64,000 bases of DNA from Eledone cirrhosa (Eukaryota), in contig OZ024740.1 of assembly GCA_964016885.1 (NCBI GenBank), positions 383,842,001-383,906,000 on the forward strand, read 5' to 3'. The notes beneath the pieces are model-generated. The model did not search any database. It saw nothing but the letters and a program-made list of their open reading frames with translations, and had not been told where the DNA came from. This document shows positions 135 through 57,348 of this stretch, in pieces (positions within the stretch are counted from its first letter, which is position 1; each line of letters opens with the position of its first letter). The position numbers were made by a program, and so were the translations under genes.

Positions 135-892
135 AATGTGTCTGTGTATGTATGTGTACGTGTGTATGAATATAGGTGCGTAGGTGTGTGTGTGTATGCC
201 TTCTTCTAAGGTAACAAAAATGTCAAAGTGCGCACAAAACTAGTACATCGATCGATATATGCAAATATTCTCACACAATGAATACGATATATGAAAAACA
301 TGCTTCCATAACTAAATATGCGTCGATGTAACAATGTGGTTTTTCTGCGTGTGTATGTGAGCATGTATGTGGGTTGGTGTGTTAGTATGTCTCATTACAA
401 GTGAATGTCGTTCTGTATAGATGTATTTCTCTTTGTTTGATTCTGTGAAAACAAATCTAGTGAATAAAACACAGGTCAAGCATGTACATATAAACACATA
501 TAATATTCATTCTTACTTAACCTTTGTTATTCAGTTACTTCGAGCACATCGGGTGTTATTCTTGGCAGGCGTTTCAATATATGCGTATAAGCACATACAT
601 ATGTACATACACAACCACACACACACACACACACACGCGCAAAAACACAAAGACAAGCGCACACACACACAAAGGCAAGCACACACAGGCACACACACAT
701 AGCAAGATAGATATCTAGATAAAGAGGAAGAAGTGTGGGAGCCGGGAAATGCTAGATCGATACAGTAGTATATAATCATATATTATTTGTAAATTTGCAT
801 GTGAATGCATAACATTCTAAAAACTGCTACTCTTACAAAATGCCTGTCAGTATATATACATATATATATATATATAGATAGGAACGAGTAGG

Positions 893-988
893 ACCCCGAC
901 GGCTGAGCTCAAGCCATTTCGACGGCTAATTCTGGACTAAATGAACATTTTTATCCTGGTATATGAATAGCCGAGCTTCTCAGGGGGT
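893..988 (-). ncRNA. Degenerate type I hammerhead in PLE1 pLTR (other copies 4487-4582 minus, 5795-5890 plus)
   Basis: ACCCC-CTGAGAA-[g..cggctattc...gaattagccgtc]-GAAA-tggcttgagctcagccg-TC-GGGGT; stems I-III pair but the core departs from CUGANGA in all three copies. Confidence 0.6.
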
Positions 989-2067
989 AATTCCATATAT
1001 GGTAAAAGTGATTGTCACAAGGATTGGTCAAAAGTTTGTTGTTGAGACACATAATTCTATCATGGCAATTTGGGGTCGGAAGGGTAGCTGAACCTGCCAG
1101 TAGAAGAAAGATGAAGAGGGGGTGGGGGTAACCCAGTCGTGCGTTGATAGTGCCAACTACAGCAGGGCAGGAGGTCAAGGAAGCATACTAGGGAGGGGGA
1201 GGGGGAGGAAGCCGAAACAATAAGTAAAACAATATGGGGTAAATATATAGAAAAATACCGAGAATGTTAAAAAAACAATTAAATATAAAAAACAATTTCT
1301 GGTTACTATTCCCTAAGGACAGCCATCAAGTATCTCACTGGTACTGCTAAACTATAGAAAGGTTTACTAGGTGGGACAAAATTATAATGAGACCCTTTTA
1401 AGAGGTTGTAGTAACCAACCGTGTATATCTTACAGTGACGGGTCAACAAGTGGGGGGCCAAAATACTAAAGAAACTACCACGAAATAATAATTCAGAGTC
1501 CCGAGACTAATACGAAATAATTGTTTCTACCCTAGGCACAAGGCCAGCAACCACCCAGTGCAAAAAAATAAACTAATACGAAATAATTATTCAGAATCCC
1601 GAAAAATAATACTAATACTATCTCTAAGGGTGCCGCTACGATACAAAAATTTTAGTGCAAACTACATAAATGCTCGTACGAAATATATGAAAAATTTGAT
1701 ACGGAAAATCAATTCAGACCCCCACACACACAAAACAAATAAATACTGATATACGAGAAATTAAAGCAAAGATACCACTAAGAAATGTAGAACGCACGAA
1801 AAAGGGGCAGCCATCGGATAAGAAAGGAAGTATCCGGGGTCTATCACATCTGCTATAAAAAGCGGAGTCGGCCAATTCTATCATAGAATAGGGGAAGGGG
1901 GTGGGGGTACTGAGGCTACAAAGGACCGAGGGGCTGCCTCGGGTGGGTGAGAAAGTGAAAAGGACGACGACAAAGAAAGAGGACTGTAGTAGAAGGACGA
2001 GGAAGGGATGGGGGAAAGAAGGAAATATAGAGGAAGCGATAAAAAGATATAAAAGAAGATCTTACGT

Positions 2068-4301
2068 CTACCTTTGCAAGCAAGGGCTACCCATTACAAA
2101 GTCGGCAAGCGGGGTGTTACAGCCCTTGTATACCCCCCACCACCCCCGGATCATTATGGGGTTTGAGGGCGAGGTAAGCCCTACGCAATCTGTGTTTGCA
2201 TGCAGTTATCAGTTCATCTTTCTTGTTTAGGAGTTGGTCCGTCGAAAACAGCATTTGTAAAGTTTCCTCCGAGCATAAATTGCACGCACGGCATCCCCCC
2301 GTGTAAGAGTTGGCTCTGTACAGTAAGCTCTAAGTGAGATCATAGGTAATATCGTTATACTTGAGGTCCCAGATGTGGCCCGAAAGTGTGGTGGCGTGAC
2401 GCCGGGCCGGGTTTTCGGAAGGTATGTCTGTGTTGGTATAGCCGGGTCTTGAAGTCACATGCGGTTAATCCTATATAAGCTTTGTTGTGGGTTGTCCGTC
2501 CTCACGTTGCACTGGTAGATCACATTACGATCTCTGCATCTGTTGTCGAGGGGGCAAATGGATCCATCAGGTCAGTTGCACCTCCTGGTCGGCTCTATAC
2601 TGCTATTTAGGTTATTTCTTCCATCGGGGTTGAGTTTTTTGTTGTTAGAGGAGACGATGTTTTGTGAAAAGTTTGGTGTGGTGCTGTAGGAGAGTTTGAT
2701 GTTATTTTTGTTAATTATGTTCTGGTAGCGGTGTTGTAGTGGGAAGTGTATTTCAATGAGCCAAAGAAGATTTTCCCGATAGGAGTTGTAACCTCGGCGT
2801 TGTGGGGAGGATTGAACCACGTTACGTTGCGTGAGCGGCGTTGTCGCCTGCTGGTTCCGCTAATGGAAGCTGGAGAGTAGGATATTTCCTCCCGGAAACC
2901 ACTCCGCTTGAGGGCCTGGTTATAATAAGGCGCATGTTCCTCGAATATCTGCTCATTAGCGGACAAACGAGATATGCGGAGGGAGATGTTTTTAACCAGG
3001 TTATTGGATGTTCCTAGGATGTTCCTAGGATGGTTTGACCGGCGGTGGATGTAGTGCAGGTTGTCGTTGGGTTTCCTGTATGGGTAGTACAGATCAATAT
3101 CGGGGTCAAGGGTAACGTCCAGGAAGTTTACTCGGGTCAGGTACGTTTGTAAGGTTATTTTAAATCCCCAGTCGCGGAAGAAGCTGATCAATTGTTTACG
3201 GACCCGATCTGTACTACTGGGGTTGTACCATTTAAGTGTAAGGAGCCCATCATCACGGTACAATCCACCGCCGAATGCAGGAAACATATCAGTGAGTTTA
3301 GCTAGTAGGAATAATCCTATAAGATCTGTGACCGCAGCCGAATCCGTCGCGCCCATGCTAACGTCGAAGGGTGAGTCGGGATCTCTCTTTATCCATTTGG
3401 AGTTGTCGAAGAGTAGGGCTGTCTTCCTCGCGTGGAGGATGATGTTTCTTTCCTGGTCGGTGATGGCCGCAAGTGTTTCGGCAAAGTCCAAGGAAGCCGT
3501 AAGTAGCGGTAAGGTAATTGAAGCATAGTAACTCTCTATGTCAAACTGGATGAATTTAGTGTCTCGTTTGTCCTCCATATTGCTGAACCCTGAGATTACT
3601 TCCTGGGTGTTGACCCATAGGCTAAGTCTGGCGTTTTGCTTAACTTTTGGTATAACGCGGTCTAGTATTTTTTTGCTGATTCTCCCTACGTCGGACTTCG
3701 TTGGGTTTATAAGCTTGATAGAAGGTTTACGGTCGAAATCGGATTTGTGGTCCTTCAGTGTGAAGTAGGGTGTCCGTGGGTCTAGAGGTTCCGTGCGGTC
3801 GGCGACCACGAGGCTGGAGGTAATTTGTTGTCCATCTCGATTTATGTCCTCGATGCATGAATGGTTAGCCTTTTTATAGGGGGAGTTTAGGCTGCTCCTG
3901 ATCAGTGTGTGGTATATGTCGGGGTTGACGAAGTAGAGGTTACCAGTTTTATCCGAGTGCACCATGATATCATTCGTGTTATCATACTCTGTTAAGTTGC
4001 TACGGAGTTTTTGTAGGAATCAGTTGTGTCTGGGTTTGAATTTAATGTTCTTGACCAGTTGGAAAAGGTCATTCTCGAAGGGTGAGAGCATAGGCTTCGG
4101 AGGGGGAGATATGTAGGTATTAAATCCGAATCTCTCCTTGGTACCGAAGTCCTGATTGTCGCAATATCTGTCGTAGAGAAAAGTTATCCATCTAAATCTT
4201 TTCGCAAATAGGTCGATTTTTTGCGTGAGCATCCGAAGGTAAAGTTTTTTCGGTGGAACTGGGATGTTCTTGGTAGAGAAGTCGATGTTGTGATTTCGCA
4301 T
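2068..4301 (-). pseudogene. PLE1 RT + GIY-YIG polyprotein with in-frame stops and frameshifts
   Basis: MRNHNIDFSTKNIP start; QFDIESYY, MGATDSA, GLYRDD, VNFLDVTL, CN*PDGSICPLDNRC, NVIY..AYIGLT..FKTRLYQH, CRACNLCSEE. TGA at 4020-4022 and 2572-2574, TAG near 2330, frameshifts near 2770, 2485 and 2415. Colinear with the 42541 ORF. Confidence 0.92.
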
Positions 4302-5996
4302 GGTGCGGGTGAAAGTACTTGAGCTTAGCGGAAAAGTCTGGATACGGCGTGGTAGGGTCCGAAAGTGCTCTACTACGGGAATAGGAGCTAGATAACGAAG
4401 GAAATCTGGTAAGGAACCAGGTGGACCATAACGCACCAAAGTACTCAATACTTAGGGTAGTAGAGTGTGTAATAGGAACGAGTAGGACCACGACGGCTGA
4501 GCTCAAGCCGTTTCGACGGCTAATTCTGGACTAAATGAAAATGTTTATCCTTCTATATGAATAGCCGAGCTTGTGAGGGGGTAATTCCATATATGGTAAA
4601 AGTGATTGTCACAAGGATTGGTCAAAAGTTTGTTGTTGAGACACAAAATTCTATCATTGCAATTTGTGGAAGGAAGGGGTAGCTGCACCTGCCAGTAGAA
4701 AAAAGAGGGAGAGGGAGTGGAGGAAACCCAGTCGTGCGTTGATAGTGCCAACTACAGCAGGGCAGGAAGTCAAGGTTATATACTAGGGAGGGGGAGGGGG
4801 AGGAAGTTGAAACAATAAGTAAAACAATATGGGGTAAATATACAGAAAAAATACCGAGAATGTTAAAACAACAATTACATATAAAAAAAACAATTTCTGG
4901 TTACTATTCCCTAAGGACAGCCATCAAATCTCTCACTGGTACTGCTAGACTATAAAAAGGTTTACTAGGTGGGACGGAATTATAATGAGACCCTTTTAAG
5001 AGGTTGTAGTAATCAACCGAGTATATCTTACGGTGACGGGTCAACAAGTGGGGGGCAAACATACTAAGAAACTACCACGAAATAATAATTCAGAGTCCCG
5101 AGACTAATACGAAATAATTGTTTCTACCCTAGGCACAAGGCCAGCAACCACCCAGTGCAAAAAATAAACTAATACGAAATAATTATTCAGAATCCCGTAA
5201 AAGAATACTAATACTATCTCTAAGGGTGCCGCTACGATACAAAAAGTCTAGTGCAAACTACATAAATGCTTGTACGAAGTATATGAAATATTTGATACGG
5301 AAAATTAATTCAGAATCCCCCCCCCCTCCCCACAAAAAAAATAAATATTGATATACGAGAAATTAAAGCAAAGATACCACTAAGAAATGTAGAAAGCACG
5401 GAAACGGGGCAGCCATCGGATAAGAAAGGAAGTATCCAGGCTCTATCACATCTGCTATAAAAAGTGGAGTCGGCCAATTCTATCATAGAATAGGGGAAGG
5501 GGTGGGGGATACTGAGGCTACAAAGGACCGAGGGGCTGCCTCGGGTGGGGGAGAATGTGAAAAGGACGACGACTTCCTCCCCCTCCCCTCCCTAGTATAC
5601 TTCCTTGATCTCCTGCCCTGCTGTAGTTGGCACTATCAACGCATGACTGGGTTTCCTCCACACCCTCACCCCCTTTCTTCTATTGGCAGGTTCAGCTACC
5701 CATCCTCCCACAAATTAGCATGATAGAATTATGTGTTTCAACAACAAACTTTTGACCAATCCTTTTGACAATCACTTTTACCATATATGGAATTACCCCC
5801 TCAGAAGCTCGGCTATTCATATACCAGGATAAAAATTTTCATTTAGTCCAGAATTATCCGTCGAAACGGATTGAGGTCAGCCGTCCGGGTCCTACTCGTT
5901 CCTATTACCCACTCTACTACCGTAAGTATTGAGTACTTTGGTGCGTTATAGTCCACCTGGTTCCTTACCACATTTCCTTCATTATATATATATATT

Positions 5997-7203
5997 GCCT
6001 GATAGTGGGATTTATAACCTTCGGAGAAATGGAAAAATATGAGTGTTGCCGTACATGGGAGTCGAACCCACATCTTTGCTTATCAGACCACTGTGCTACC
6101 ATTACACCAATACACATCCCGTCTCCTTCCATTCGAATTAGAAGCTATGAACTTAGCAAGTGAATGATAAACAAGCAAATTATAAACGTAAACATGTAAG
6201 TATATTTTTGAAACGGTGCGCGAGTTTGAAATTAGAAATTAGAAATTATAATCTTCTCGCCGTATTTTAGACTAAACGAATTTCTAGCCTGATAGTGGGG
6301 TTTATAACCCTCGGAGAAATGGAAAAAGATGAGTGTTGCCGTACATGGGAGTCGAACCCACATCTTTGGTTATCCAGACCACTGTGCTTCCATTACACCA
6401 CTACACATCCAGTCTCCTTGGTAGCACAGTGGTCTGGATAACTAAAGATGTGGGTTCGACTCCCATGTACGGCAACACTCATCTTTTTCCATTTGTCCGA
6501 GGGTTATAAACCCCACTAGAAATTTCTTTAATCTAAAATACGGTGAAAGTATATAATTTCTAATTTCTAATTTCAAACTCGCGCACCGTTTCAAAAATAA
6601 ACTTACATGTTTACGTTTATAATTTGCTTGTTTATCATTTACTTGCTAAGTTAATAGCTTCTAATTCGAATGGAGGGAGACGGGATGTGTATTGGTGTAA
6701 TGGTAGCACAGTGGTCTGGATAACCAAAGATGTGGGTTCGACTCCCATGTACGGCAACACTCATCTTTTTCCATTTCTCCGAGGGTTATAAACCCCACTA
6801 TCAGGCTAGAAATTTCTTTAGCCTAAAATACGGTGAAAGCTTATAATTTCTAATTTCTAATTTAAAACTCGCGCACCGTCTCAAAAATATACTTACATGT
6901 TTACGTTTATAATTTGCTTGTTTATCATTCACTTGTTAAGTTCATAGCTTCTAATTCGAATGGAAGGAGACGGGATGTGTATTGGTGTAATGCTAGCACA
7001 GTGGTCTGGATTACCAAAGATGTGGGTTCGACTCCCATGTACGGCAACACTCATCTTTTACCATTTCTCCGAGGGTTATAAACCCCACTACCAGGCTAGA
7101 AATTTTTTTAGTCTAAAATACGGTGAAAGCTTATAATTTCTAATTTCAAACTCGCGCACCGTTTCAAAAATACACTTACATGTTTACGTTTATAATTTGC
7201 TTG
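5997..7203. repeat. 290-bp tandem unit with tRNA-like module, arranged as two inverted arms
   Basis: Period 290 (5997/6287; 6703/6993); left arm 5997-6419 is the reverse complement of the right-arm unit (6420-7203); (TA)n on both sides. Confidence 0.9.
6686..6756 (+). ncRNA. tRNA-derived cloverleaf / Pol III promoter (pseudo-tRNA); about 5 full or partial copies in the array
   Basis: Box A TGGTGTAATGG, box B GGTTCGACTCC, D stem gtgt/gcac, stem tggt/acca around loop CTGGATA, T stem gtggg/cccat, imperfect acceptor stem, T5 run ~12 nt downstream. Confidence 0.7.
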
Positions 7204-7263
<60 letters not shown>

Positions 7264-8828: not shown

Positions 8829-8945
8829 GAGAGAGAGATAGGGGGAGAGAGGGAGAGCGAGAGTGACAGAGAGAGATATGTTTATCCCGGGTTCAATTGG
8901 TGGTAACCACACCAAGTAAGATACTCAGTACAAAGCAGAGTATAA

Positions 8946-9080
8946 GTATTTAATATATAAAAGGCTTCTACAGGACTAGAACTCTTTCACTCAGAAATCA
9001 TCAGGAAGCCCCTGATAATTTCTTTCGAATGAAACTGTTCTAGCCCTGTACCCTGTAGAAGACTATTCTATATTAAATAT
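8946..9080. repeat. Short palindromic insert with two degenerate hammerhead cores
   Basis: Imperfect inverted arms; minus CTGATGA..GAAA gagt TC, plus CTGATAA..GAAA ctgt TC; stem I lost at the turnaround. Confidence 0.55.
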
Positions 9081-9090
9081 ATATATATTA

Positions 9091-16741: not shown

Positions 16742-17069
16742 ATATTAACAAATGGAAACTATATTTATAAAACCATATTTATTTCATTATGCATATTCAA
16801 GGGTCACCAAGGCAAACTATGGTGCGCTTTCATCAGATAAAATATGATATAGGTTTGTTTTATAAATAAATATTGACATACCCTGAAAAAATGCAACCAT
16901 TATGGTTAGAATATCAATGCAACCATTCTGATTGGAATCTCCTGGAGATTCCGACCAGAATGGTTGCATTTTTTCAGGGTATGTCAATATTTATTTATAA
17001 AACTAACCTGTATAATGAAATAAATATGGTTTTATAAATATAGTTTCCATTTTTTAATATATTGTATAT
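16735..17069. repeat. Palindromic insert; left arm carries a degenerate HHR (16780-16844, minus)
   Basis: Inverted arms; minus strand tattttat-CTGATGA-aag..ctt-GAAT-atgca-TA-atgaaata with an 8-bp stem I. Confidence 0.7.
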
Positions 17070-25628: not shown

Positions 25629-25810
25629 TATTTATTTTGTCAATGGTTGTAATTATATTCATTTTATAATTGCGTTCATTCATCATCCGCCAATAAATAT
25701 TACGTGATTCAAATTTCGTAATTAAGGATTTGAGTTAAAATAAGATATCTATACGTCAGCACAACGCCCAAGTCGTATACATTCCATATCAAGATTATAT
25801 CAGGATATGT

Positions 25811-26075
25811 CATTATATATATATATGTATATCTAGTTAATAAATAAAACAAACAAAACACAGGAAGCAACTTTACGCAGTTATATTAGATTATATGTAA
25901 AAAGAGATAGCGAGTGAGAGGGGAGCGAGAGAATGTTACACTCTTTCTTACATTCTCTCGCTCCCCTCTCACTCGCTATCTCTTTTTACATATAATCTAA
26001 TATAACTGCGTAAAGTTGCTTCCTGTGTTTTGTTTGTTTTATTTATTAACTAGATATACATATATATATATAATG
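25811..26075. repeat. Perfect 126-bp inverted repeat with 13-nt spacer
   Basis: Arms 25811-25936 and 25950-26075 read as exact reverse complements. Confidence 0.92.
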
Positions 26076-26949
26076 AAAGAGTGTATAGTAAGATAGATAA
26101 TTCATACGCACAGTTCACATAAAAAAAATAGTAGTTAAATTTCCACGGTCATAAATGTTCGTTGCAACCGGATACAAGCTATCTCAATATTTATATCTAC
26201 ACTTACATTAAGTTTTTTTAAACTCTGATCTTCAGCTTAGTGTTGTAACGGACTATATTCAATCCAGGAACATTTGTTTCTAAACAAATCACACACAATA
26301 TTTCTAAGTTGAGCAAATTTAAAAGTAATAAATTCACATTGCATTTATGATGTCACTAAACTAAAACATGAGGAATGAGATGGGGAAAACTTCCAACAAA
26401 TCCTTGGTGATATATCATTGATGAAGACTACGTAATAGCAGTTAATCAACAGCTGAGTGATCACAATCAAAAGTATCTGGGACTCTACTCGCTGCTGTTG
26501 TTGTGTTAAGTTGTGATTGTGGTGTTGGTGATTGTAAATCATTTTGTTGTTGGTATTCTTGTTTTTCTTTGTTTCTTATCCTCGCAAACATTTTATAAGT
26601 ATTGCCCATGTGTTTGAATCCAATTTTATTAATTTGGGTTTTGTAATTTACATAGGTTATGTTTGTATTTTCAATGTCTTAGCGTGTAGATCCATTACAG
26701 AGAAGGATTCTATTTTATTTCTTATTCTTTTCGGAGCCTAGATTCAGGAAAGCGAGGACGCCCTAAGAGCATGCATGAGGCGTAGATTGCCATAGCTGAA
26801 TGGTCTATCCTAAGAGTTTTATGCACATATGTCAGACATCTTCGCCGATGTACACGTTGATGTATACTGCAACTGGCAGCAGATCGCGAGAATCGCGAGG
26901 TTTGTAGGTCGGTGAGTAACAGCGCTAATGAAGAAAATCTCGAACAAGG

Positions 26950-33885: not shown

Positions 33886-33900
33886 CTATATATATATATG

Positions 33901-35635
<1,735 letters not shown>

Positions 35636-35645
35636 AATTCATATA

Positions 35646-35782
<137 letters not shown>

Positions 35783-35783
35783 T

Positions 35784-35874
<91 letters not shown>

Positions 35875-35875
35875 T

Positions 35876-36072
<197 letters not shown>

Positions 36073-36090
36073 GTATATATATATGTATAT

Positions 36091-38002
36091 GAATATAGAC
36101 ATAGAATATTCGAAAATATTCTGTATGTTTATAATAAACATTTTGAAGACCTAATCGCTATAGAATAGAATACGTCACGTATTACAATTAGATTCTCGAT
36201 AAAAGCAAGGGAAGTAATCTACGCGTTTCATTCTTGTTAGAAATCATCAGGACTACATATCCAGTGCTTTTATCGAGAATGACACAGCTAGAGACTTATA
36301 GAATACTTAGCTGTGTACAGGAACTGGTTTGAAAGAGCGGTTGCCGGTCCGGCAGAAATTAGAAATTGGAATAAAAGCTCTGAAATAGCGATATATATGT
36401 GAATATAGACATAGAATATTCGAAAATATTCTGTATGTTTATAATAAACATTTTGAAGACCTAATCGCTATAGAATAGAATACGTCACGTATTACAATTA
36501 GATTCTCGATAAAAGCAAGGGAAGTAATCTACGCGTTTCATTCTTGTTAGAAATCATCAGGACTACATATCCAGTGCTTTTATCGAGAATGACACAGCTA
36601 GAGACTTATAGAATACTTAGCTGTGTACAGGAACTGGTTTGAAAGAGCGGTTGCCGGTCCGGCAGAAATTAGAAATTGGAATAAAAGCTCTGAAATAGCG
36701 ATATATATGTGAATATAGACATAGAATATTCGAAAATATTCTGTATGTTTATAATAAACATTTTGAAGACCTAATCGCTATAGAATAGAATACGTCACGT
36801 ATTACAATTAGATTCTCGATAAAAGCAAGGGAAGTAATCTACGCGTTTCATTCTTGTTAGAAATCATCAGGACTACATATCCAGTGCTTTTATCGAGAAT
36901 GACACAGCTAGAGACTTATAGAATACTTAGCTGTGTACAGGAACTGGTTTGAAAGAGCGGTTGCCGGTCCGGCAGAAATTAGAAATTGGAATAAAAGCTC
37001 TGAAATAGCGATATATATGTGAATATAGACATAGAATATTCGAAAATATTCTGTATGTTTATAATAAACATTTTGAAGACCTAATCGCTATAGAATAGAA
37101 TACGTCACGTATTACAATTAGATTCTCGATAAAAGCAAGGGAAGTAATCTACGCGTTTCATTCTTGTTAGAAATCATCAGGACTACATATCCAGTGCTTT
37201 TATCGAGAATGACACAGCTAGAGACTTATAGAATACTTAGCTGTGTACATTGTAATACGTGACGTATTCTATTCTATAGCGATTAGGTCTTCAAAATGTT
37301 TATTATAAACATACAGAATATTTTCGAATATTCTATGTCTATATTCACATATATATCGCTATTTCAGAGCTTTTATTCCAATTTCTAATTTCTGCCGGAC
37401 CGGCAACCGCTCTTTCAAACCAGTTCCTGTACACAGCTAAGTATTCTATAAGTCTCTAGCTGTGTCATTCTCGATAAAAGCACTGGATATGTAGTCCTGA
37501 TGATTTCTAACAAGAATGAAACGCGTAGATTACTTCCCTTGCTTTTATCGAGAATCTAATTGTAATACGTGACGTATTCTATTCTATAGCGATTAGGTCT
37601 TCAAAATGTTTATTATAAACATACAGAATATTTTCGAATATTCTATGTCTATATTCACATATATATCGCTATTTCAGAGCTTTTATTCCAATTTCTAATT
37701 TCTGCCGGACCGGCAACCGCTCTTTCAAACCAGTTCCTGTACACAGCTAAGTATTCTATAAGTCTCTAGCTGTGTCATTCTCGATAAAAGCACTGGATAT
37801 GTAGTCCTGATGATTTCTAACAAGAATGAAACGCGTAGATTACTTCCCTTGCTTTTATCGAGAATCTAATTGTAATACGTGACGTATTCTATTCTATAGC
37901 GATTAGGTCTTCAAAATGTTTATTATAAACATACAGAATATTTTCGAATATTCTATGTCTATATTCACATATATATCGCTATTTCAGAGCTTTTATTCCA
38001 AT
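36091..38002. mobile_element. Retrozyme-like array: apparently identical 310-bp units, six HHRs, two divergent arms
   Basis: Period 310 (36181, 36491, 36801, 37111; 37491, 37801); inversion junction at ~37249; HHRs start at 36214, 36524, 36834, 37144 (-) and 37491, 37801 (+). Confidence 0.93.
37491..37533 (+). ncRNA. Minimal type I hammerhead ribozyme
   Basis: gtagtc-CTGATGA-tttctaacaagaat-GAAA-cgcg-TA-gattac; palindromic stem III ACGCGT. Confidence 0.9.
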
Positions 38003-38081
38003 ATATGTATATATATATATGTATATATATATATGTATATATATATGTATATATATATATGTATATATATATATGTATATA

Positions 38082-38128
<47 letters not shown>

Positions 38129-38141
38129 ATATATATATATG

Positions 38142-38192
<51 letters not shown>

Positions 38193-38198
38193 GTATAA

Positions 38199-38231
<33 letters not shown>

Positions 38232-38240
38232 TATGTATAA

Positions 38241-38295
<55 letters not shown>

Positions 38296-38306
38296 TATAT
38301 GTATAA

Positions 38307-38346
<40 letters not shown>

Positions 38347-38757
38347 GTATGAGAGATGACCCCTTAGCTTTTGTCAAGGCAGAATTCTAGGAGAAGGAAA
38401 ACTCTGATATAACAACTGCAACTCTGATGGTATCCAATGATGTTGACTTGTTCTTCTTTTTGGTAAATATCATCTTGGTTAAGAGAGTGGGACTGGCTTT
38501 GTGCAGTGCCTTTACTCACTATAAAAGCTTCACGGCACAGGCATTGCTTTATATCTGGAGATCTCTCTGCACTTGTCGTCACATGGTACCATGGGCCCAG
38601 CACTATGTGTCAATAATTGTCACAAGTGTAGTGTTTGTACCAGAGTTTTCAAGTCGCTGGCTGGACTAAAAAGTCACACTTGTTTAGCGCATCGGTAGGG
38701 GTTCTCCTACATGGATATAAAGTAGTGGCCGTACTCGAAAACGAGTTGGCAGCCACC

Positions 38758-39787
<1,030 letters not shown>

Positions 39788-39798
39788 AAATACATATG

Positions 39799-40080
39799 TC
39801 AAATATTTACAATTTGGCTTCGTTTATTAGTGCTATATATATTTCGGTGACAGCCATCTTTGGCTGTGACATCTTCAGGCAGCCCGAATTGGTATGGTAG
39901 AGACGGTTACACTTGTTGTTGAGGTGCTTAACTCCGTCAATACTGCGATACTGTCGTCAACCTTATGTGTACCGGTCTCTACCACATCAATTCGGACTGC
40001 CTGAAGAGGTCACAGCCAAAGATGGCTGTCACCGAAATATATATAGCAGTAATAAACGAAGCCAAATTGTAAATATTTGA
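39799..40080. mobile_element. Palindromic solo-pLTR insert with an HHR in each arm
   Basis: Plus 39996-40050 actgc-CTGAAGA-ggtcacagccaaagatggctgtcacc-GAAA-tatata-TA-gcagt-AATAAA; minus copy 39829-39882. Confidence 0.88.
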
Positions 40081-40193
40081 TTTATTTATTTTATTTTACA
40101 TTACTCCGGAGTAACCAATCCCACCTGCGCACTTCATCGAGTGCTCCAATCTGCATACTGAGGTGTCGGTAAACAACCAACATATACTAAATG

Positions 40194-40362: not shown

Positions 40363-40695
40363 ATATTAAAATATAAATATTAATAAAATAGATGTTCTTT
40401 TGATCAATTAAATTTTATTATACATATTTCAGAGGTACAACAATACGTCCTCATCAGACAAAATATAATGATACATGACATACTCTGAGATGTTAAATGG
40501 TTAAGATTTAATCAAGCTAGTCAACCTTGATTAAATCTTAATCATTTAATTCTTAACCATTTACAATCTCAGGGTATGTCATGTATCATTATATTTTGTC
40601 TGATGAGGACGTACTGTTGTACCTCTGAAATATGTATCATAAAATTTAATTGATCAAAAGATCATCTATTTTATTAATATTTATATTTTAATATA
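40363..40695. mobile_element. Palindromic solo-pLTR insert with an HHR in each arm (different family)
   Basis: Plus 40593-40645 attttgt-CTGATGA-ggacgtactgttgtacctct-GAAA-tatgta-TC-ataaaat; minus copy 40412-40464. Confidence 0.88.
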
Positions 40696-40697
40696 TT

Positions 40698-40779
<82 letters not shown>

Positions 40780-41809
40780 TTAAAGAAATAATGAATAAAC
40801 AATTCCTTATATTAAACAAAAAAAGTTCATTATTTAACGATCGTTTCTAGGGTATATATGTGTTATAATTGGTATGCATATTCAACAGATCTATGTACAA
40901 AATTATACAAAATTATACAAATTATCAAGATTAAATATACATACCTAACACATATATACGCCGTCTTCAGAAATAATGAAGTATATTTATTGATAATAAC
41001 AACAATTCAAAATATCAGTTCAAAATTGACCAATGAAAACACAAAGGGTTAAAAGCAGTTCGGTGTGTGTATATACATGTAAAAACCTTACACATATTTT
41101 ACAATAATGTGTGTATAATTTGTATGCGCATACTAAAAAGATGGATGCAAACACAAAATTTCAAGGTTAATATCTCTGTAAGCTTAATGCGCTGATAAGA
41201 TGCGCATTGATACTTATGGAGTCAAGCATATAAATATATTTTTTCATACTCACACATATCAGTATAATCACACATACATGCGCGTATATGCATAAATATA
41301 CACATAACCACGAACATACAAACACACACACTCCCCCACTCACATTTATATATGTGGATATAAAATCATAAGCACATAGAAATTAAGTCACTCACATAAA
41401 ACACTGGCACACACATTTCAAGATCAAGATACAGAAATTAGGTGGGAGGGGGGGGAGGGGTCAGTATTCAATTGTCTGAGCAGACTGCCTAATATAAATG
41501 TATCTATAAATTAAGAAAAATAAAAAAATAAAAAAATAAAAACAATAAAATATAATAAATATAATATAATGTACATACACATACAGATATATATACACAT
41601 ACATACATGTACGCGCACATAGAGATATTTACGCATACACACATACACACATACATATACAGTCATACACACACATACACTTACACGAACATACACATAC
41701 ACATATAAAAAGATATATATATATACACACACACACGCGCAACACATACACACATACACATATATATAAAAAATAGATAATAAAAATATATATCCATATA
41801 TATATATAT

Positions 41810-41862
<53 letters not shown>

Positions 41863-41951
41863 TAAACATATACATACACATACATCTAAATATACATACA
41901 CATACATACACACATACATGTACATACATGTACATACATATACGCACATCG

Positions 41952-41993
<42 letters not shown>

Positions 41994-42540
41994 TCACATA
42001 GACATAAAGATACATACACACACAACTTACATACACACGTATATATATATATATATAGATGTACCTTCATACATAGAATTAGATATATTTAATCTTGATA
42101 ATTTGTATAATTTTGTATAATTTTGTACATAGATCTGTTGAATATGCATACCAATTATAACACATATATACCCTAGAAACGATCGTTAAATAATGAACTT
42201 TTTTTGTTTAATATAAGGAATTGTTTATTCATTATTTCTTTAATATTTTATCTTGACTCTGTATACCGTTTATCTTTCACCGAAAGTGGATTTTCATTAC
42301 ATCTCTTCTTTCCATGATATCCGGAATACATTGAGTTCTTCATACGGATTGGACACTACCGTAAACTCTTGGTAGATTTATCTACATAATTTTGCTCCTA
42401 TTTTCACGGAAATATTCGTATTTTTGTACTGTAGGTGTGTATTAATTTTATATTTATGTATAAACATATATATATGTATGATTTTGTAAACCCATATACA
42501 TTTAGTTGAGCTCTTTCAATTGTCCATCATCCATATCACA

Positions 42541-44982
42541 ATGGAAAAACAATATTTAGGAACCTCCTTAAAAAACATACCAATACCTTCTAAGGACGAC
42601 TTCTTACTCCTTATGATTCAGAAAACTAATAATTTTATCAGAAGGGTTAGATGGAGAGCCTACCACTTCGATAGAAAATCTAAACAAGCAGATCGGAAAT
42701 ATATGTATGATTTCAATACTTACAAGAATCCACCACACAACTTTTTACTTGAAGACTTCGAGAAAGACCTTTTTAATTTAATTAAACACCTCAAATTTAA
42801 AAAGTATAAATCCGTCTTTCAAAAGGACCTTGATTCTACCCTATTGGACCTAAAAAAGTCTAAAAAAATCCATGTCCACTCGGACAAAACTGGTAACTTG
42901 TATCATATGGATATTGAACATTATAATGAGTTCATATATAAAGAACTCAGAAAAAATTATAAAAAATCTAATAATGTGTCACTCACCAACATCAACAACA
43001 AAACACACAACATAGTAAAAAAACTAAACATTGAAGATAGAACTGAACCTTTGGCATTGAAAAGACCACACTTCAACCTGAAAGATCACAAATCTAACTT
43101 TAACTCTAATCCTTCTATTAGACTTATATGTCCCTCCAAATCAGATATTGGAATAATTAGCAAAAAAATTTTAGATAGAGTCATCCCACAAATAAGAAAA
43201 TACGTTATTTTACCACTCTGGGAAAACACCTCCCAGGTAATTAATTGGTTTAAAAATATTAGGTGTAAATCTTCTGCTTCTTTCCTACAATTTGATATAG
43301 ATAATTACTATTCTTCTATATCACCCATACTCCTGAACAAAGCATTAATATTTGCTAAAAATAGATCTAATTTAACTTCGGATGACATTAACATTATTAC
43401 ACATGCTAGACTAACACTTATTGAATTTCAGAATGAATACTGGACCAGAAACACATACAGTAATCTTTTTGATATTACTATGGGTTCAAGCGATTCCGCC
43501 CAAATTACTGATCTTGTGGGCCTCTTTCTCCTTTTCAACATAAATGCCTCTTTTCCCCACCTCAAAGGTGGTTTATATCGTGATGACTGTCTTCTTCTTT
43601 CTAACAACCTTAGCCTTTCAGAAATCGAAAAAAACAAAAAACATATTAGAACTTTCCTTAAAGACTATTATAATCTTAATATTACTTTTGAAAAAACAAG
43701 TAAAGTAGTAAATTTCCTAGATATAACTTTAGATTTAGCTACGGGTATATACCAACCTTACCATAAACCTAACCAAAACTTACATTACATACACTCACAA
43801 TCTAATCACCCTAAATCTATCCTTAAAAACCTTGCATATAATATATCACTTAGAATTTCTAACCTTTCTTCTAACCAAGATGTATTTGATAAAAATGCGA
43901 CCTTTTATAATGAAGCTCTAGATAGAAGTGGCCACAAAAATAGATTAGAGTATATACCTTCTACTAAAAATACTGAAAGCATACAGCATAATATTACCAA
44001 CAAACACCAAATGAAAAGTACACACCTAAATGCCACCCACAATATACCCCAAAATACTAAATCTTCTAATATAAAGTATAGTAACCCTCAAAAAACTACT
44101 CATCATACAACTATAATAAATATTAATAATAAAACTCCTAATAAAAAAGATAAAACACCTAAATCTACAAATATAACTAAAAATAGTTGTGGTGAGATCA
44201 TTAACATTAATCCTCCTAGTAAAAATCATGATACAACCTATAAAAATAATAAAAATAATAAACAACATAGAAACCGTAATAGACGAGTTACTTGGTATAA
44301 TGCTCCTTTTAATTTACAAGTTAAGGATAATATTGCTAAAAAATTTTTTTATATCCTTGAGAAAAACTTCCCGCCAAACCACAAATACCATCAAATCTTA
44401 AATAGGTCTACAGTTAAATTCTCATACTCTACAACAAATAACATAAAACAAAATATAAGTGCATATAATGCATATAAATGTAAGAAAACCATAAGTATAC
44501 CACCAGTACATCAAATTAACAATAATATCTCCTCAAATACAGAATTAACGAAAGGATGTAACTGTAGAAACAAAACAAACTGCCCATTAAAAGGGAATTG
44601 TCTTGTTAACAACATAGTCTATAAATGTAATGTTAAAACTAAAGATTCTATTTGCTCATATATAGGAGCTACCTCTAACAATTTTAAGACAAGATTTAAT
44701 ACCCACAAACATAGTTTTAAAAATGCCGCACTGGCTAATACAACATCTCTAGCAGAAAAAATCAATAGTTATAAAAATAAGAATATAAAATATGATTTGA
44801 CCTGGAGTGTGCTCAAAAGAGCCACCCCTTATCAAAATAATAGAAAGGAATGTGGATTATGTTCCCAAGAACTATTTGAAATAATGAAGTCTAAGGATAT
44901 CTTATTAAATAAACGACAGGAATTAATTATATCGTGTAATCATAAACTAAAAAAAACATTTAAATATTATAAACCTAATTAA
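42541..44982 (+). CDS. PLE polyprotein: reverse transcriptase, Cys-rich linker and GIY-YIG endonuclease (~813 aa from the first ATG)
   Basis: Uninterrupted ORF with SDKTGNLY, QFDIDNYY, MGSSDSAQITDLVG, GLYRDD, VNFLDITL, CNCRNKTNCPLKGNC, NIVY..SYIGAT..FKTRFNTH, CGLCSQE, LLNKRQE. Confidence 0.95.
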   Translation: MEKQYLGTSLKNIPIPSKDDFLLLMIQKTNNFIRRVRWRAYHFDRKSKQADRKYMYDFNTYKNPPHNFLLEDFEKDLFNLIKHLKFKKYKSVFQKDLDSTLLDLKKSKKIHVHSDKTGNLYHMDIEHYNEFIYKELRKNYKKSNNVSLTNINNKTHNIVKKLNIEDRTEPLALKRPHFNLKDHKSNFNSNPSIRLICPSKSDIGIISKKILDRVIPQIRKYVILPLWENTSQVINWFKNIRCKSSASFLQFDIDNYYSSISPILLNKALIFAKNRSNLTSDDINIITHARLTLIEFQNEYWTRNTYSNLFDITMGSSDSAQITDLVGLFLLFNINASFPHLKGGLYRDDCLLLSNNLSLSEIEKNKKHIRTFLKDYYNLNITFEKTSKVVNFLDITLDLATGIYQPYHKPNQNLHYIHSQSNHPKSILKNLAYNISLRISNLSSNQDVFDKNATFYNEALDRSGHKNRLEYIPSTKNTESIQHNITNKHQMKSTHLNATHNIPQNTKSSNIKYSNPQKTTHHTTIININNKTPNKKDKTPKSTNITKNSCGEIININPPSKNHDTTYKNNKNNKQHRNRNRRVTWYNAPFNLQVKDNIAKKFFYILEKNFPPNHKYHQILNRSTVKFSYSTTNNIKQNISAYNAYKCKKTISIPPVHQINNNISSNTELTKGCNCRNKTNCPLKGNCLVNNIVYKCNVKTKDSICSYIGATSNNFKTRFNTHKHSFKNAALANTTSLAEKINSYKNKNIKYDLTWSVLKRATPYQNNRKECGLCSQELFEIMKSKDILLNKRQELIISCNHKLKKTFKYYKPN

Positions 44983-45514
44983 TAACATTATTCTAGAAAT
45001 TAATTTAATTTAAATGTTAGTTAACCTATAAATTTAATTTAATTAATATTTTATTACAGATGAGAAAATATTATGTAATCATAAATTGTGAAAAACCTTT
45101 AAATATTACTAATATATACTTAGTAATTTAATTTATAGATTAACTTTAATTTATTTAAACCTTTTATTATAATTCTTTTACAGATAAAATATAACAAAAT
45201 AATATCATGTATCCAAGGACGGAGAAAGAATTTTTAGTATTATAGACCTAATTAATATACATTTTGGAAATATATTTATTATTTGGTTTTAGTTTTAATC
45301 ATCCTAAAACTTTAATTTTAATTTGCTTAAAATTAGTATCCTTATACAGACGAATTGCAGAATGTCATGTAATCATAGAATGGGATGTGTTTTGGATATA
45401 TACCTAGTTAATATATTCTGTGCAATTTTTTGAAAAAGATATGTATATGTATATGTATATGTATATGTGTGTGTTGTGTATGTGTATCTGTATGTATGTA
45501 TATGTGTGTATATA

Positions 45515-45557
<43 letters not shown>

Positions 45558-47185
45558 ATATGTATGTATATGTGTATGTGTATGTATATGTATATGTATG
45601 CGTATTAATTTTGATTTCTATTTGCATATAATTATATTATGCTATTGATGAAATACAATATCTGCTTTATGTATTGTATACCTAATTAACATATACTAAT
45701 TAACGTATACTATTGAAATAAATATATAATTTTTAATTTAGTTAACATATAATTTATATGCTACTACCGATGTAATAATTTTTTTTATTTTTATTTGGGT
45801 TTCTTTTCCCTATTACTAAATTCATCTCCTAATATTGATACCATAACGTTATTAACTTTAATTTAGTTATAATGTAATTAATAATCTACTACTGTTTGAC
45901 TTCAAAATTCTGCTTCAAATATTATAAACCTAACTAATTTACACCTTAGAAATCAATATGTTGACTATCTTTGGTTTAGTTAACATATGATTAATGGTAT
46001 ACTTATTTATTTTGAGATGCATAGATCTCGTATTTCCTAGCACTGAAAATATGTAAGAACATACATTGAATTAAGATACGGAAAATATTATATGTTTCTT
46101 GAAACATATATTTACTTTGATCCCCTTCTCCAAACCCCCCCTTTCCCCCATACTATTATCATCTGTATTTGTAAGCGTCTATGTATGAATATATATGTAG
46201 GTAGGTGTCTATATAGGTTTGGGTATTTATATCTAAATATAAAAATACATATATGAGCATGCAAATATGAATGTAAGATTGTGTGTGTATATATGATTGT
46301 ACATACATATGTATGTATATATATGTATATATATGTATTATATATGTATGTGTATGTGAATGTGTTGTATGTATATGTGTATGTATGTGTATATATGTGT
46401 ATGTATGTGTATGCTTGTATATATAGGAATATATATATGTGTATATATGTATGTATATGTATATGCGTGTATGTATGTATGTGTATGTGTGTTGTGTATA
46501 TATATGTATGTCTCTCTATTTATATGTTTATCTTCGTATCTATGTGATATATGTGTGTGTGTATGCACGTATGCATATGTATGTGTTTGTGTGTGTTTGT
46601 ATGTGTGTGTGTATATATGTGTATGTGCGCACACTCACATACACATATATATATATATATATATATATGTGAGTGTGTATGTGTGTCTGTGTGTGTGTGT
46701 GTGTGTGTATGTGTATATATATATATATATATATGTGTATATATATATAGAGATATATATATATATATATATATAGGTGTCTATGTGTGAATATATGTCT
46801 TTATTCGTATGTGTGTATTTATGTATGTATATGTTTATGTGTATGTATGTATGTGTATGTATGTATGTATATATATATATATATATATATGTATATGTGT
46901 ATATATATATATGTATATTATTCTTTATTATTATTGTAATATAACTTATGTGTATATGTGTATAAGTGAGGTTGTGTATGTATATATAATATGTGTATAT
47001 ATAAGAGTAATGAAATATATATATATATATATATGTGCATGTCTGTTTTTTATGTGTGTGTATATATATATATATGTATGTATATATATATGTGTATGTA
47101 TACGTGTGTGTATATAGATATATATATATATACATGTGGGTGTTTGTATGTGTATTTATGGTGGTATGAGTGTGTGGATATATAT

Positions 47186-47222
<37 letters not shown>

Positions 47223-47226
47223 TCTA

Positions 47227-47283
<57 letters not shown>

Positions 47284-47605
47284 ATGTGTATGTGTGTGTA
47301 TGTGTATATATATATGTGTATGTATGTGTGTATATATATATATCTCTATTAATGCGTGTGTGTATGTATATACATATGCCTTTTTATTATTATTTTCATT
47401 TGTATGTCTGAGTTTGGTGAGGTTGTATTGTTTTTTATGTATATACACATATATGGAAGCGTATGTATTTATTTATATGAGTATAAGTAGGTGCATATGT
47501 ATGTATGATTATATATCTAATTCTATGTATGAAGGTACATCTATATATATATATATATACGTGTGTATGTAAGTTGTGTGTGTATGTATCTTTATGTCTA
47601 TGTGA

Positions 47606-47653
<48 letters not shown>

Positions 47654-47742
47654 CGATGTGTGTATATGTATGTACATGTATGTACATGTATGTGTGTATG
47701 TATGTGTATGTATATTTAGATGTATGTGTATGTATATGTATA

Positions 47743-47801
<59 letters not shown>

Positions 47802-48628
47802 ATATATATATATATGGATATATATTTTTATTATCTATTTTTTATATATATGTGTATGTGTGTATGTGTTGCGCGTGTGTGTGTGTATATATATATCTTT
47901 TTATATGTGTATGTGTATGTTCGTGTAAGTGTATGTGTGTGTATGACTGTATATGTATGTGTGTATGTGTGTATGCGTAAATATCTCTATGTGCGCGTAC
48001 ATGTATGTATGTGTATATATATCTGTATGTGTATGTACATTATATTATATTTATTATATTTTATTGTTTTTATTTTTTTATTTTTTTATTTTTCTTAATT
48101 TATAGATACATTTATATTAGGCAGTCTGCTCAGACAATTGAATACTGACCCCTCCCCCCCCTCCCACCTAATTTCTGTATCTTGATCTTGAAATGTGTGT
48201 GCCAGTGTTTTATGTGAGTGACTTAATTTCTATGTGCTTATGATTTTATATCCACATATATAAATGTGAGTGGGGGAGTGTGTGTGTTTGTATGTTCGTG
48301 GTTATGTGTATATTTATGCATATACGCGCATGTATGTGTGATTATACTGATATGTGTGAGTATGAAAAAATATATTTATATGCTTGACTCCATAAGTATC
48401 AATGCGCATCTTATCAGCGCATTAAGCTTACAGAGATATTAACCTTGAAATTTTGTGTTTGCATCCATCTTTTTAGTATGCGCATACAAATTATACACAC
48501 ATTATTGTAAAATATGTGTAAGGTTTTTACATGTATATACACACACCGAACTGCTTTTAACCCTTTGTGTTTTCATTGGTCAATTTTGAACTGATATTTT
48601 GAATTGTTGTTATTATCAATAAATATAC

Positions 48629-48783
48629 TTCATTATTTCTGAAGACGGCGTATATATGTGTTAGGTATGTATATTTAATCTTGATAATTTGTATAATTTT
48701 GTATAATTTTGTACATAGATCTGTTGAATATGCATACCAATTATAACACATATATACCCTAGAAACGATCGTTAAATAATGAA
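48629..48783 (+). ncRNA. Type I hammerhead with 116-nt stem II (second full copy 40826-40980, minus)
   Basis: ttcattattt-CTGAAGA-[gtatatatgtgtta/taacacatatatac; ggtatgtatattt/gaatatgcatacc]-GAAA-cgatcg-TT-aaataatgaa; perfect 10-bp stem I. Confidence 0.85.
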
Positions 48784-49069
48784 CTTTTTTTGTTTAATAT
48801 AAGGAATTGTTTATTCATTATTTCTTTAATATTTTATCTTGACTCTGTATACCGTTTATCTTTCACCGAAAGTGGATTTTCATTACATCTCTTCTTTCCA
48901 TGATATCCGGAATACATTGAGTTCTTCATACGGATTGGACACTACCGTAAACTCTTGGTAGATTTATCTACATATATATATATATATATTCTAAAACTTG
49001 ATTAGTCCCATTCCATAATTGTAAATATATGTATTTAAAATATATATATATATATATATATATATTTTT

Positions 49070-56339: not shown

Positions 56340-57070
56340 CTAGCAGAAAAACCACCCTTCGGGTGGTTTTCCGCAAGCAAGTGTAGTGTGTAGATTGATA
56401 TTATACGCAACTATATATACATGTAGATATGATACATCAAATAAAATCGTAATTGACGATATAAACCGAAATTGAAGACGACGTTGTTACACTGTCTTGT
56501 GTAATCAGTAACGTAATCCATGATACATTAAAAAAAGACGATATTATATATAAACTGCATTAGGAGAAAATTAGTATGTTTATTTAAGTGATCGCCACCG
56601 AAAGTGTTGACATCACACACTCTGTCTTTCTATATATATGGTAGTTGAAGTGGTGGTGGTGGCAACGATATACCGGAAGTGCAACTGTGAAAAGAAGTCA
56701 ATTTTCAATTATTTATTTTTACGAAATTATTTCTGTTTAGAAATTTAGTAGATAAATTATGTAATATTCATTCATTATTTATTCAAAGTAATGGCGGTGG
56801 ATTGGCAGTATCGGTGGAGGGTCGGACGCCATGCTTTCCAAACATAGTTACGTCCCTTTACGATCTGAGTTCAAATCCCGCCGAGGTTGACTTTGCCTTT
56901 CATCCTTACGGGGTCGATAAAATAAAGTACCAGTAATGCACTGGGTGATTGCTGGCCTTATGCCTAAAGTAGAAACAATTATTTATTCAAAGTAATCCAA
57001 CTTATTTTAGTAACGGGATAAAAATAAAACCGTACGCAGTCCCGCAGACCTTCCTTTATTATAGTTTAGA
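56340..57070 (-). mobile_element. Non-autonomous Helitron carrying a nested SINE
   Basis: Minus strand A|TCTAAACTATAATAAAG ... hairpin aaaaccaccc/gggtggtttt ... CTAG|T. Confidence 0.75.
56793..56977 (+). mobile_element. SINE family A, full length, 19-bp TSD
   Basis: TSD attatttattcaaagtaat at 56774-56792 and 56978-56996; A and B boxes present. Confidence 0.9.
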
Positions 57071-57156
57071 TTATTTTCATTAGGTTAGTATCATTCATAA
57101 GGTTGGTGGAAGTAGTGTTTTCTTCTGTACCTGTTGAAGTTGATGCACAGTACCGA

Positions 57157-57348
57157 ATAATTGTTTCTACTTTTGGCACAAGGCCAGCAATCACCCCAGT
57201 GCATTACGGGTACTTTATTTTATCTACCCCGCAATGATGAAAGGCAAAGTTAACCTCGGCGGGATTTGAACTCATAACGTAAAGGGCTATAACTCTATGC
57301 TACAAAGCACGATGTCCAAAGCTCTACCGACTCTGGCAATCCACCGCC
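57157..57348 (-). mobile_element. SINE family A
   Basis: Reverse complement of the 56793 copy. Confidence 0.85.

Follow-up and report, generated by a model that had tools for sequence, protein, structure and literature searches.

Anatomy of a head-to-head array

The locus of interest is an array of a 310-bp unit (34% GC) set between two (TA)n tracts. It was analysed within a window, by which we mean the whole 64-kb stretch of DNA under study, which contains no N at any position. The array and its immediate surroundings consist of the following parts:

35641–36089, no strand: left (TA)n target tract, with G interspersed (sequence inspection)
36090–37249, minus strand: left arm, 1,160 nt, 3.74 units, sense leftwards from the centre (comparison to the unit)
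37249–37249, no strand: head-to-head joint, one base common to both arms (arm comparison)
37249–38002, plus strand: right arm, 754 nt, 2.43 units, sense rightwards from the centre (comparison to the unit)
37968–38002, plus strand: 35-nt "tail" from unit phase 98 to phase 133, starting with the unit's AT tract (arm-end phases)
38003–38350, no strand: right (TA)n target tract (sequence inspection)

Neither arm contains a mismatch to the unit, and the count of ~3.7 minus and ~2.4 plus units without differences, given in an earlier note on this DNA, is confirmed as 3.74 + 2.43 units. The first mismatches fall at 36089 on the left side and at 38003 on the right. The span had been placed at 36091–38002 in that note; its right end stands, and its left end moves one base further left, to 36090. 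The same note described a 1.9-kb palindrome. Two inverted arms are indeed present, but the palindrome is inexact: the arms meet off-register, the left beginning at unit phase 179 and the right at phase 0. The sense 5' ends of both arms are central, and the sense 3' ends adjoin the flanks.

No stop-to-stop frame of at least 100 aa lies wholly inside the arms, and the frames listed enter from the TA tracts. The array has the features by which non-LTR retrozymes are recognised, namely (i) tandem units of ~150–450 bp, (ii) a GC content below 50%, and (iii) a layout that is not of the LTR type. Zero differences in ~1,900 bases place the divergence below ~0.2%, a value that speaks of youth or homogenisation and not of present activity. 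Together with the type I hammerhead motifs described below, this bears out the earlier description of a retrozyme-type unit of very young age.

The outer ends fall at different phases of the unit, as had been observed before: the left end at phase 98 and the right end at phase 133, an offset of 35 nt that is uncertain by ±2 nt of shared bases. The left end adjoins the unit's AT tract; in register, 9 of 11 bases there agree with the actual flanking sequence, a score that 1 of the 310 phases reaches. This agrees with the claim that the left end lies at the unit's AT tract and matches the TA target; the exact match spans 2 bases only, and any end within the ~10-nt AT tract would score similarly. 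At the right end 5 of 11 bases match the target, with 79 of 310 phases as good, so the match is no better than chance. Homology at one end and a chance-level match at the other make priming by microhomology plausible for the left end only. The earlier proposal of reverse transcription primed by microhomology is narrowed accordingly: a reverse transcriptase (RT)-type insertion into (TA)n stands, and microhomology is retained at the left end but not at the right. A search for helper homology at the centre joint gave one shared base only, and a check for target-site duplication found (TA)n on both flanks.

The hammerhead motif and its predicted folding

Each complete unit carries a type I hammerhead motif, and the core is intact in every unit. 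The six hammerhead units that the earlier note reported correspond to six complete cores with a 6-bp stem I (minus strand 37180, 36870, 36560 and 36250; plus strand 37497 and 37807). All of the following were located by a scan for core and stems:

36214–36256, minus strand: type I hammerhead motif, predicted cut after 36220
36524–36566, minus strand: type I hammerhead motif, predicted cut after 36530
36834–36876, minus strand: type I hammerhead motif, predicted cut after 36840
37144–37186, minus strand: type I hammerhead motif, predicted cut after 37150
37491–37533, plus strand: type I hammerhead motif, predicted cut after 37527
37801–37843, plus strand: type I hammerhead motif, predicted cut after 37837

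In order, the motif comprises the 6-bp stem I, CUGAUGA, a U.U followed by a 4-bp stem II, GAAA, a 1-bp stem III with a CGCG loop, and GUA. The cleavage junction had been correctly placed in the earlier note, with the predicted cut after GAAACGCGUA (37527 and 37837). A hammerhead scan requiring stems I and III gave 11 matches in the window, against a total of 1 in 10 shuffles. The sole Rfam match was Hammerhead_HH9, at 19.2 bits against a gathering score of 52, and at the gathering threshold Rfam reported no ribozyme in the searched sequence; the hammerhead is therefore identified by its core and stems. The array is not a plant LTR retrozyme, which carries a type III hammerhead in each of two LTRs, since its hammerheads are of type I and its units stand in tandem.

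The circular 310-nt monomer is predicted to fold at -67.8 kcal/mol (z -4.3 versus 60 shuffles), with 60% of bases paired. Two features weaken the hammerhead: the 1-bp stem III, which resembles that of axolotl HHR_Amex1, and the U.U at the base of stem II, which resembles that of HHR_Amex2. By computation, stem III is unfavourable in the monomer (+2.1 versus -3.1 kcal/mol without it, a cost of 5.2 kcal/mol), while an intermolecular ACGCGU duplex between two copies is worth -7.5 kcal/mol. Cleavage is hence predicted for the dimer, and the ribozyme is predicted to be of a weak, dimer-dependent type. Dimer dependence is a described design of animal type I hammerheads (PMC4209133; PMC7229834), and among frog retrozymes 8 of 9 predicted dimers were uncleaved in vitro (10.64898/2026.07.22.740005).

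Read-through from the left or the right flank alike would likely yield the antisense arm first, and a duplex of up to 754 bp would trap most of the ribozymes; cleavable RNA would need a transcription start inside the element. For this reason the earlier suggestion that transcription would give both cleavable RNA and long dsRNA is doubtful for a single molecule.

Other palindromes and Penelope-like elements in the window

Ten palindromic candidates were examined in the window, and a sense could be assigned to six of these by hammerhead, ORF or tRNA-like motif. The six are the 310-bp array, 39778–40101, 40363–40694, 5997–7208 and two Penelope-like elements (PLEs; 878–5988 and 40775–48974), and every one is head to head. 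The other four are inverted-repeat insertions without assignable sense (8941–9085, 16745–17057, 25810–26076 and 56793–57348). The arms of several window palindromes are only 85–91% alike, a degree of difference that is not to be expected of fold-back artefacts and that indicates divergence in the genome.

Rearrangement of DNA is possible in tandem arrays and AT-rich tracts, and the array could in principle have arisen without RNA, as an ordinary satellite duplicated in inverted orientation where a (TA)n tract had broken. Against this, the flanks are not duplicated, the six orientable palindromes share one polarity relative to the RNA sense, and both the tail offset and the intact ribozyme core in every unit would go unexplained. 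We consider this the most improbable of the explanations weighed here.

The two PLEs belong to the same clade:

878–5988, with frames at 2715–4451, minus strand: older, broken PLE (43% identity to the young PLE)
40775–48974, plus strand: young Hydra-clade-like PLE in (TA)n (ORF motifs, terminal repeats)

The ORF of the young PLE (42490–44982, plus strand) is unbroken over 830 codons, with its first Met at residue 18 and an N/K-rich stretch, and lies 4.5 kb from the 310-bp array. It contains RW, DKT, YRDD, CxCx5C, a YIG endonuclease core, CxxC and CxH, the feature set given for Hydra-clade PLEs in PMC8557442. Its Atlas look-alikes score 0.94–0.98, some of them with RVT_1 (16–48% of members); the PLE protein was not recognised by Pfam (0 of 17 frames) or PDB. 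The head-to-head inverted arm is 98.8% alike, the 305-bp direct terminal repeat is 100% identical, and the tail measures 140 nt. The unbroken ORF and the near-identical arms indicate that PLE machinery was recently active here. Terminal repeats of both kinds, direct and inverted, are present in the older PLE, whose tail measures ~85 nt; ACTC-hairpin-GAGT motifs lie close to its ends (4388, 4466 and 5911).

Two relationships between the array and these elements were considered and rejected. Firstly, the array is not an autonomous PLE, since the insert has no RT + GIY-YIG ORF. Secondly, the 310-bp unit does not seem to derive from the window's Hydra-clade PLEs: no meaningful terminal sequence is shared among the matches listed, and none of the nine ACTC-hairpin-GAGT matches in the window lies in the unit (nor does any lie in the young PLE). 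When the unit was compared with the PLE ends of the window, nhmmer matched the insert only, and the BLAST matches listed were AT-rich or short. Scans for a canonical hammerhead core in the terminal repeat of the young PLE found none.

The remaining orientable palindromes have features of their own. Those at 39778–40101 and 40363–40694 are small, with one hammerhead per arm, arms 85% and 90% alike, and one-sided extensions of ~80–100 nt towards TA tracts. The 5997–7208 palindrome is a tandem array of a 290-bp unit, head to head between TA tracts, with a tRNA-like motif (four Rfam tRNA matches); no hammerhead core was found in it. This suggests that a tRNA-derived RNA without a known ribozyme was inserted there in the same manner.

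Public contigs and a proposed route of insertion

The public sequencing run designated X1 contains 624 contigs with the 310-bp unit, at a summed depth of ~1e5–3.5e5 (which is not a copy number) versus 3–27 at single joints; the unit is a multi-copy dispersed family. The other repeats of the window are also present in X1 at high depth, and contigs of individual variants have depths of 8–16; on these grounds we take X1 to be DNA from the host or from a close relative.

At one position of the unit all six copies in the array have T (37371, 37681 and 37991; on the minus strand 36996, 36686 and 36376). The corresponding base in X1 is A in 99.4% of depth and T in at most 0.6%, and the contigs of two further runs, X2 and X4, also have A. 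Provided that X1 represents the window's species, the rare T shared by all six copies indicates that both arms come from one template lineage. The earlier note had proposed checking that unit identity is not consensus collapse; the array carries this private allele, at ≤0.6% of X1 depth, and not the X1 majority, which argues that it is not the family consensus and speaks against such a collapse.

The wider possibility of an assembly or library artefact, whether a chimeric read produced by fold-back or the polishing of repeat copies to a single sequence, would suit the perfect identity of the units and the long (TA)n on both flanks, and among the X1 contigs listed none crosses the centre joint at 37249. 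Such an artefact is hard to reconcile with units that carry a rare allele instead of the X1 majority (if X1 is of the window's species), with arms of unequal length joined off-register, and with older palindromes of the same polarity whose arms have diverged. We judge it very unlikely.

X1 contains at least 13 other antisense-to-sense joints, of 13 different phase pairs and at depth 3–27, and no sense-to-antisense joint is among those listed. This count leaves out two "opposite strand" rows, which are cyclic X2 and X4 contigs meeting a repetitive reference. Five of the 13 joints are near-symmetric, with arm starts at most 5 nt apart (binomial P 6e-5), and the remaining eight are 25–147 nt off symmetry. 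The outer-end positions, too, appear to recur in the family. Eight X1 contigs have loose ends at the unit's AT tract, with a consensus that ends in (TA)n; in X2, a single 340-nt contig (310+30) opens exactly at the right-end phase of 133, for which chance is 2 in 310; and a contig in X4 has its end at phase 93, which is 5 nt away from the left site.

In anatomy the array is an animal non-LTR retrozyme, and its insertion seems to work like that of a PLE. It combines an inverted, head-to-head 5' copy, a tail within the 30–40 bp class, and a (TA)n/AT-rich target. Features described as standard for PLEs are (TA)n targets, a copy that is inverted and 5'-truncated, and a one-sided tail of 30–40 bp (PMC8557442; PMC3846280). 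Work on the one PLE studied in vitro describes two internal RT start sites with the tail being the sequence between them, the cutting and extension of both DNA strands, and start sites that are not homologous to the target (PMC11167929). The 35-nt offset matches PLE tail length, and we count it in favour of priming from two start sites of the PLE type. Linking the different end phases to the 30–40 nt Penelope tail and to a PLE enzyme is an addition to the earlier note's reading.

The most likely explanation, which we favour with moderate confidence, is a recent retrozyme insertion by twin-ended priming, in which a PLE RT acting in trans copied a circular monomer. The proposed route has six steps: (i) a source array would be transcribed; (ii) neighbouring hammerheads would pair via ACGCGU and cut after GUA as dimers, and the 310-nt monomer would be ligated to a circle by a host ligase; (iii) a PLE endonuclease would cut both strands of (TA)n; (iv) both DNA 3' ends would be extended on one RNA species, with starts at two sites separated by 35 nt, of which one may be helped by pairing to the unit's AU tract and the other would be made without homology; (v) the RT would go 3.7 and 2.4 times round the circle; and (vi) the two cDNA 3' ends would be joined at one shared base and then filled in.

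With sense 3' ends at the flanks and sense 5' ends at the centre, the arms are oriented as they would be if cDNA had been primed by the 3'-OH ends of both flanks. Twin-ended priming is also favoured by the apparent recurrence of the outer-end positions, by the rare allele shared by all six copies, by the 13 or more antisense-to-sense joints in X1 with none of the reverse kind among those listed, by the good fold of the circular monomer, and by the uniform polarity of the six orientable palindromes in the window, of which two are PLEs and one of these has the unbroken ORF. Other observations count against it. The five near-symmetric X1 joints point to fold-back self-priming or to a library artefact for part of the family, and the shorter arm could be a copy of the longer. 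The hammerhead has two weakening features, and most of the frog dimers mentioned above went uncleaved. In addition, the X4 contig ends 5 nt off the left site, the unit has no meaningful sequence in common with the window's PLE ends among the matches listed, and the ACTC-hairpin-GAGT motif of the older PLE is absent from it.

The main rival to twin-ended priming is fold-back self-priming, in which the cDNA 3' end from the left flank turns back and copies its own 754 nt, the far end then being resolved by an endonuclease or end joining. Self-priming has been proposed for head-to-head Penelope palindromes (PMC3846280), and it would account for the near-symmetric joints and for a short arm that fits wholly within the long arm and carries the same allele. 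Yet the joint at 37249 departs from symmetry by 130 nt and shares a single base, most X1 joints are likewise asymmetric, and some of the low-depth symmetric ones may be library products. Fold-back also leaves aside that the right end lies one tail length from the left end, at the very base where the X2 contig opens, and that both strands were extended in vitro (PMC11167929). On balance we regard fold-back self-priming as rather unlikely.

A circular template and a linear multimer would look the same in the sequence of the array, and a further alternative accordingly keeps the PLE enzyme and dispenses with the circle: a linear read-through multimer was copied, or slippage or unequal exchange later lengthened a palindrome that was shorter at first. 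This is in keeping with the weak hammerhead, with in vitro PLE work in which the template was predominantly uncleaved RNA and mutation of the hammerhead did not abolish insertion (PMC11167929), and with Li et al., who favour local tandem amplification (10.64898/2026.07.22.740005). It would need either a source array that already had four or more identical units and the rare allele, or two perfect expansions independent of each other, and related animal retrozymes accumulate as circles (PMC7229834). We hold copying without a circle to be unlikely.

A more specific form of twin-ended priming can be put forward tentatively, as a possibility short of an even chance: the 310-nt ribozyme circle would still be active, and a PLE RT, related to telomerase, would copy it from the two ends of a (TA)n break simultaneously. 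The enzyme would make several rounds of the circle and have two fixed start sites, one start being made by telomerase-like annealing of the target to the AU tract and the other being homology-free. If this is true, such insertions would record rolling-circle twin priming in the genome, and the unit could serve as a minimal template for reconstituting it.

Among known systems, animal non-LTR retrozymes share its tandem, non-coding units of 150–450 bp with GC below 50%, and its one type I hammerhead per unit in a structured monomer (PMC7229834; 10.64898/2026.07.22.740005). Expression and circles have been shown for them in those reports. The locus here differs in consisting of two head-to-head arrays with a PLE-type tail in (TA)n. 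Mobilisation of retrozymes by PLEs was proposed by Cervera and de la Peña 2020 (PMC7229834) and by Li, Clavereau and Pollet 2026 (10.64898/2026.07.22.740005). A term search of the main texts of both papers gave no description of inverted or palindromic arrays, and no head-to-head retrozyme array is mentioned in the titles and abstract starts of the retrozyme, hammerhead, PLE and twin-priming literature searched.

EN+ PLEs, including the Hydra clade, have in common with the array the inverted 5'-truncated copy in head-to-head polarity, the one-sided 30–40 bp tail and (TA)n targets, and hammerheads, which lie in their terminal repeats (PMC8557442; PMC3846280). Unlike them, the array has no ORF, the entire insert being the repeated 310-nt unit. 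Poseidon_Ac of Anolis, studied in vitro by Frangieh et al. 2024 (PMC11167929), likewise has two start sites one tail apart and an AT-rich target of which both strands are cut and extended, steps that we infer for the array. Its template is linear, and its start sites lie in an AC-rich stem-loop without homology to the target, whereas one end of the array coincides with the unit's best target-like tract. In LINE-1 twin priming (Ostertag and Kazazian 2001, via 10.1101/2024.12.14.628481), both ends of a break are also extended on RNA and a 5' part is inverted; the array differs in having neither poly(A) nor an L1 endonuclease site, in having several units per arm, and in start sites that appear fixed.

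The element class is already known, and the locus is one of many such in the genome and not a new system. Its value lies in bringing together two questions for which mechanisms have been proposed: how retrozymes return to DNA, and how the tails and inverted ends of PLEs arise. The two are tied together by an insertion that is free of mutations, has several units in each arm, shows a tail of PLE size and carries a private allele. As a clean test case it predicts exact start sites for work in vitro, at phases 98 and 133 of the unit.

The unit is also found under other organism labels. Twenty of the 24 public runs listed (17 organism labels, 16 studies) contain 66–93% of its words; four of the 20 were examined by contig alignment (X1, X2 and X4 on the array centre, 37249–37600, and on a second stretch with other repeats of the window, X12 on the second only). 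None of the runs with the unit is listed as RNA, and they are uninformative on expression. A Hi-C run under the label of X12 (X21) gave 0 matching reads with ~1% of the run read, which amounts to no test. In X2 and X4 the unit is present as a single cyclic contig. Horizontal spread was considered and set aside: X2, X4 and X12 also contain traces of the window's other repeats, which makes carry-over likelier than horizontal transfer. The near-identical unit under 17 labels is thus probably carry-over, although the fit is imperfect. A second hammerhead family of the window, with a 421-bp unit, has depths relative to X1 of 0.04% in X2, 0.0003% in X4 and 0.02% in X12, and on the same scale the 310-bp unit is richer than this family by 6-fold in X2 and 20-fold in X4. 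An RNA source would explain that excess.

The 421-bp units are ~95% alike and lie at 33895–34298 and 34435–35641, with the octamer ATGCAAAT at 34215, 34833 and 35254. By eye these are two separate insertions, the second arm of the left one being only ~8 nt long. Loose ends are present at 34259 in 49 X1 contigs, with a consensus ending in (TA)n; this site is ~60 nt from the other end site.

Among the X1 variants of the 310-bp unit listed, none at ≥5% falls in the catalytic core; the second listed is an A to G change in hammerhead loop II (37512), at 35% of depth. One X1 contig jumps from the predicted cut at 37527, at a depth of 2.65 that is too weak for use. Loose hammerhead-like cores are seen at 8667 on the plus strand and 9004 on the minus strand, the latter with 14 bases in common with the core region of the 310-bp unit.
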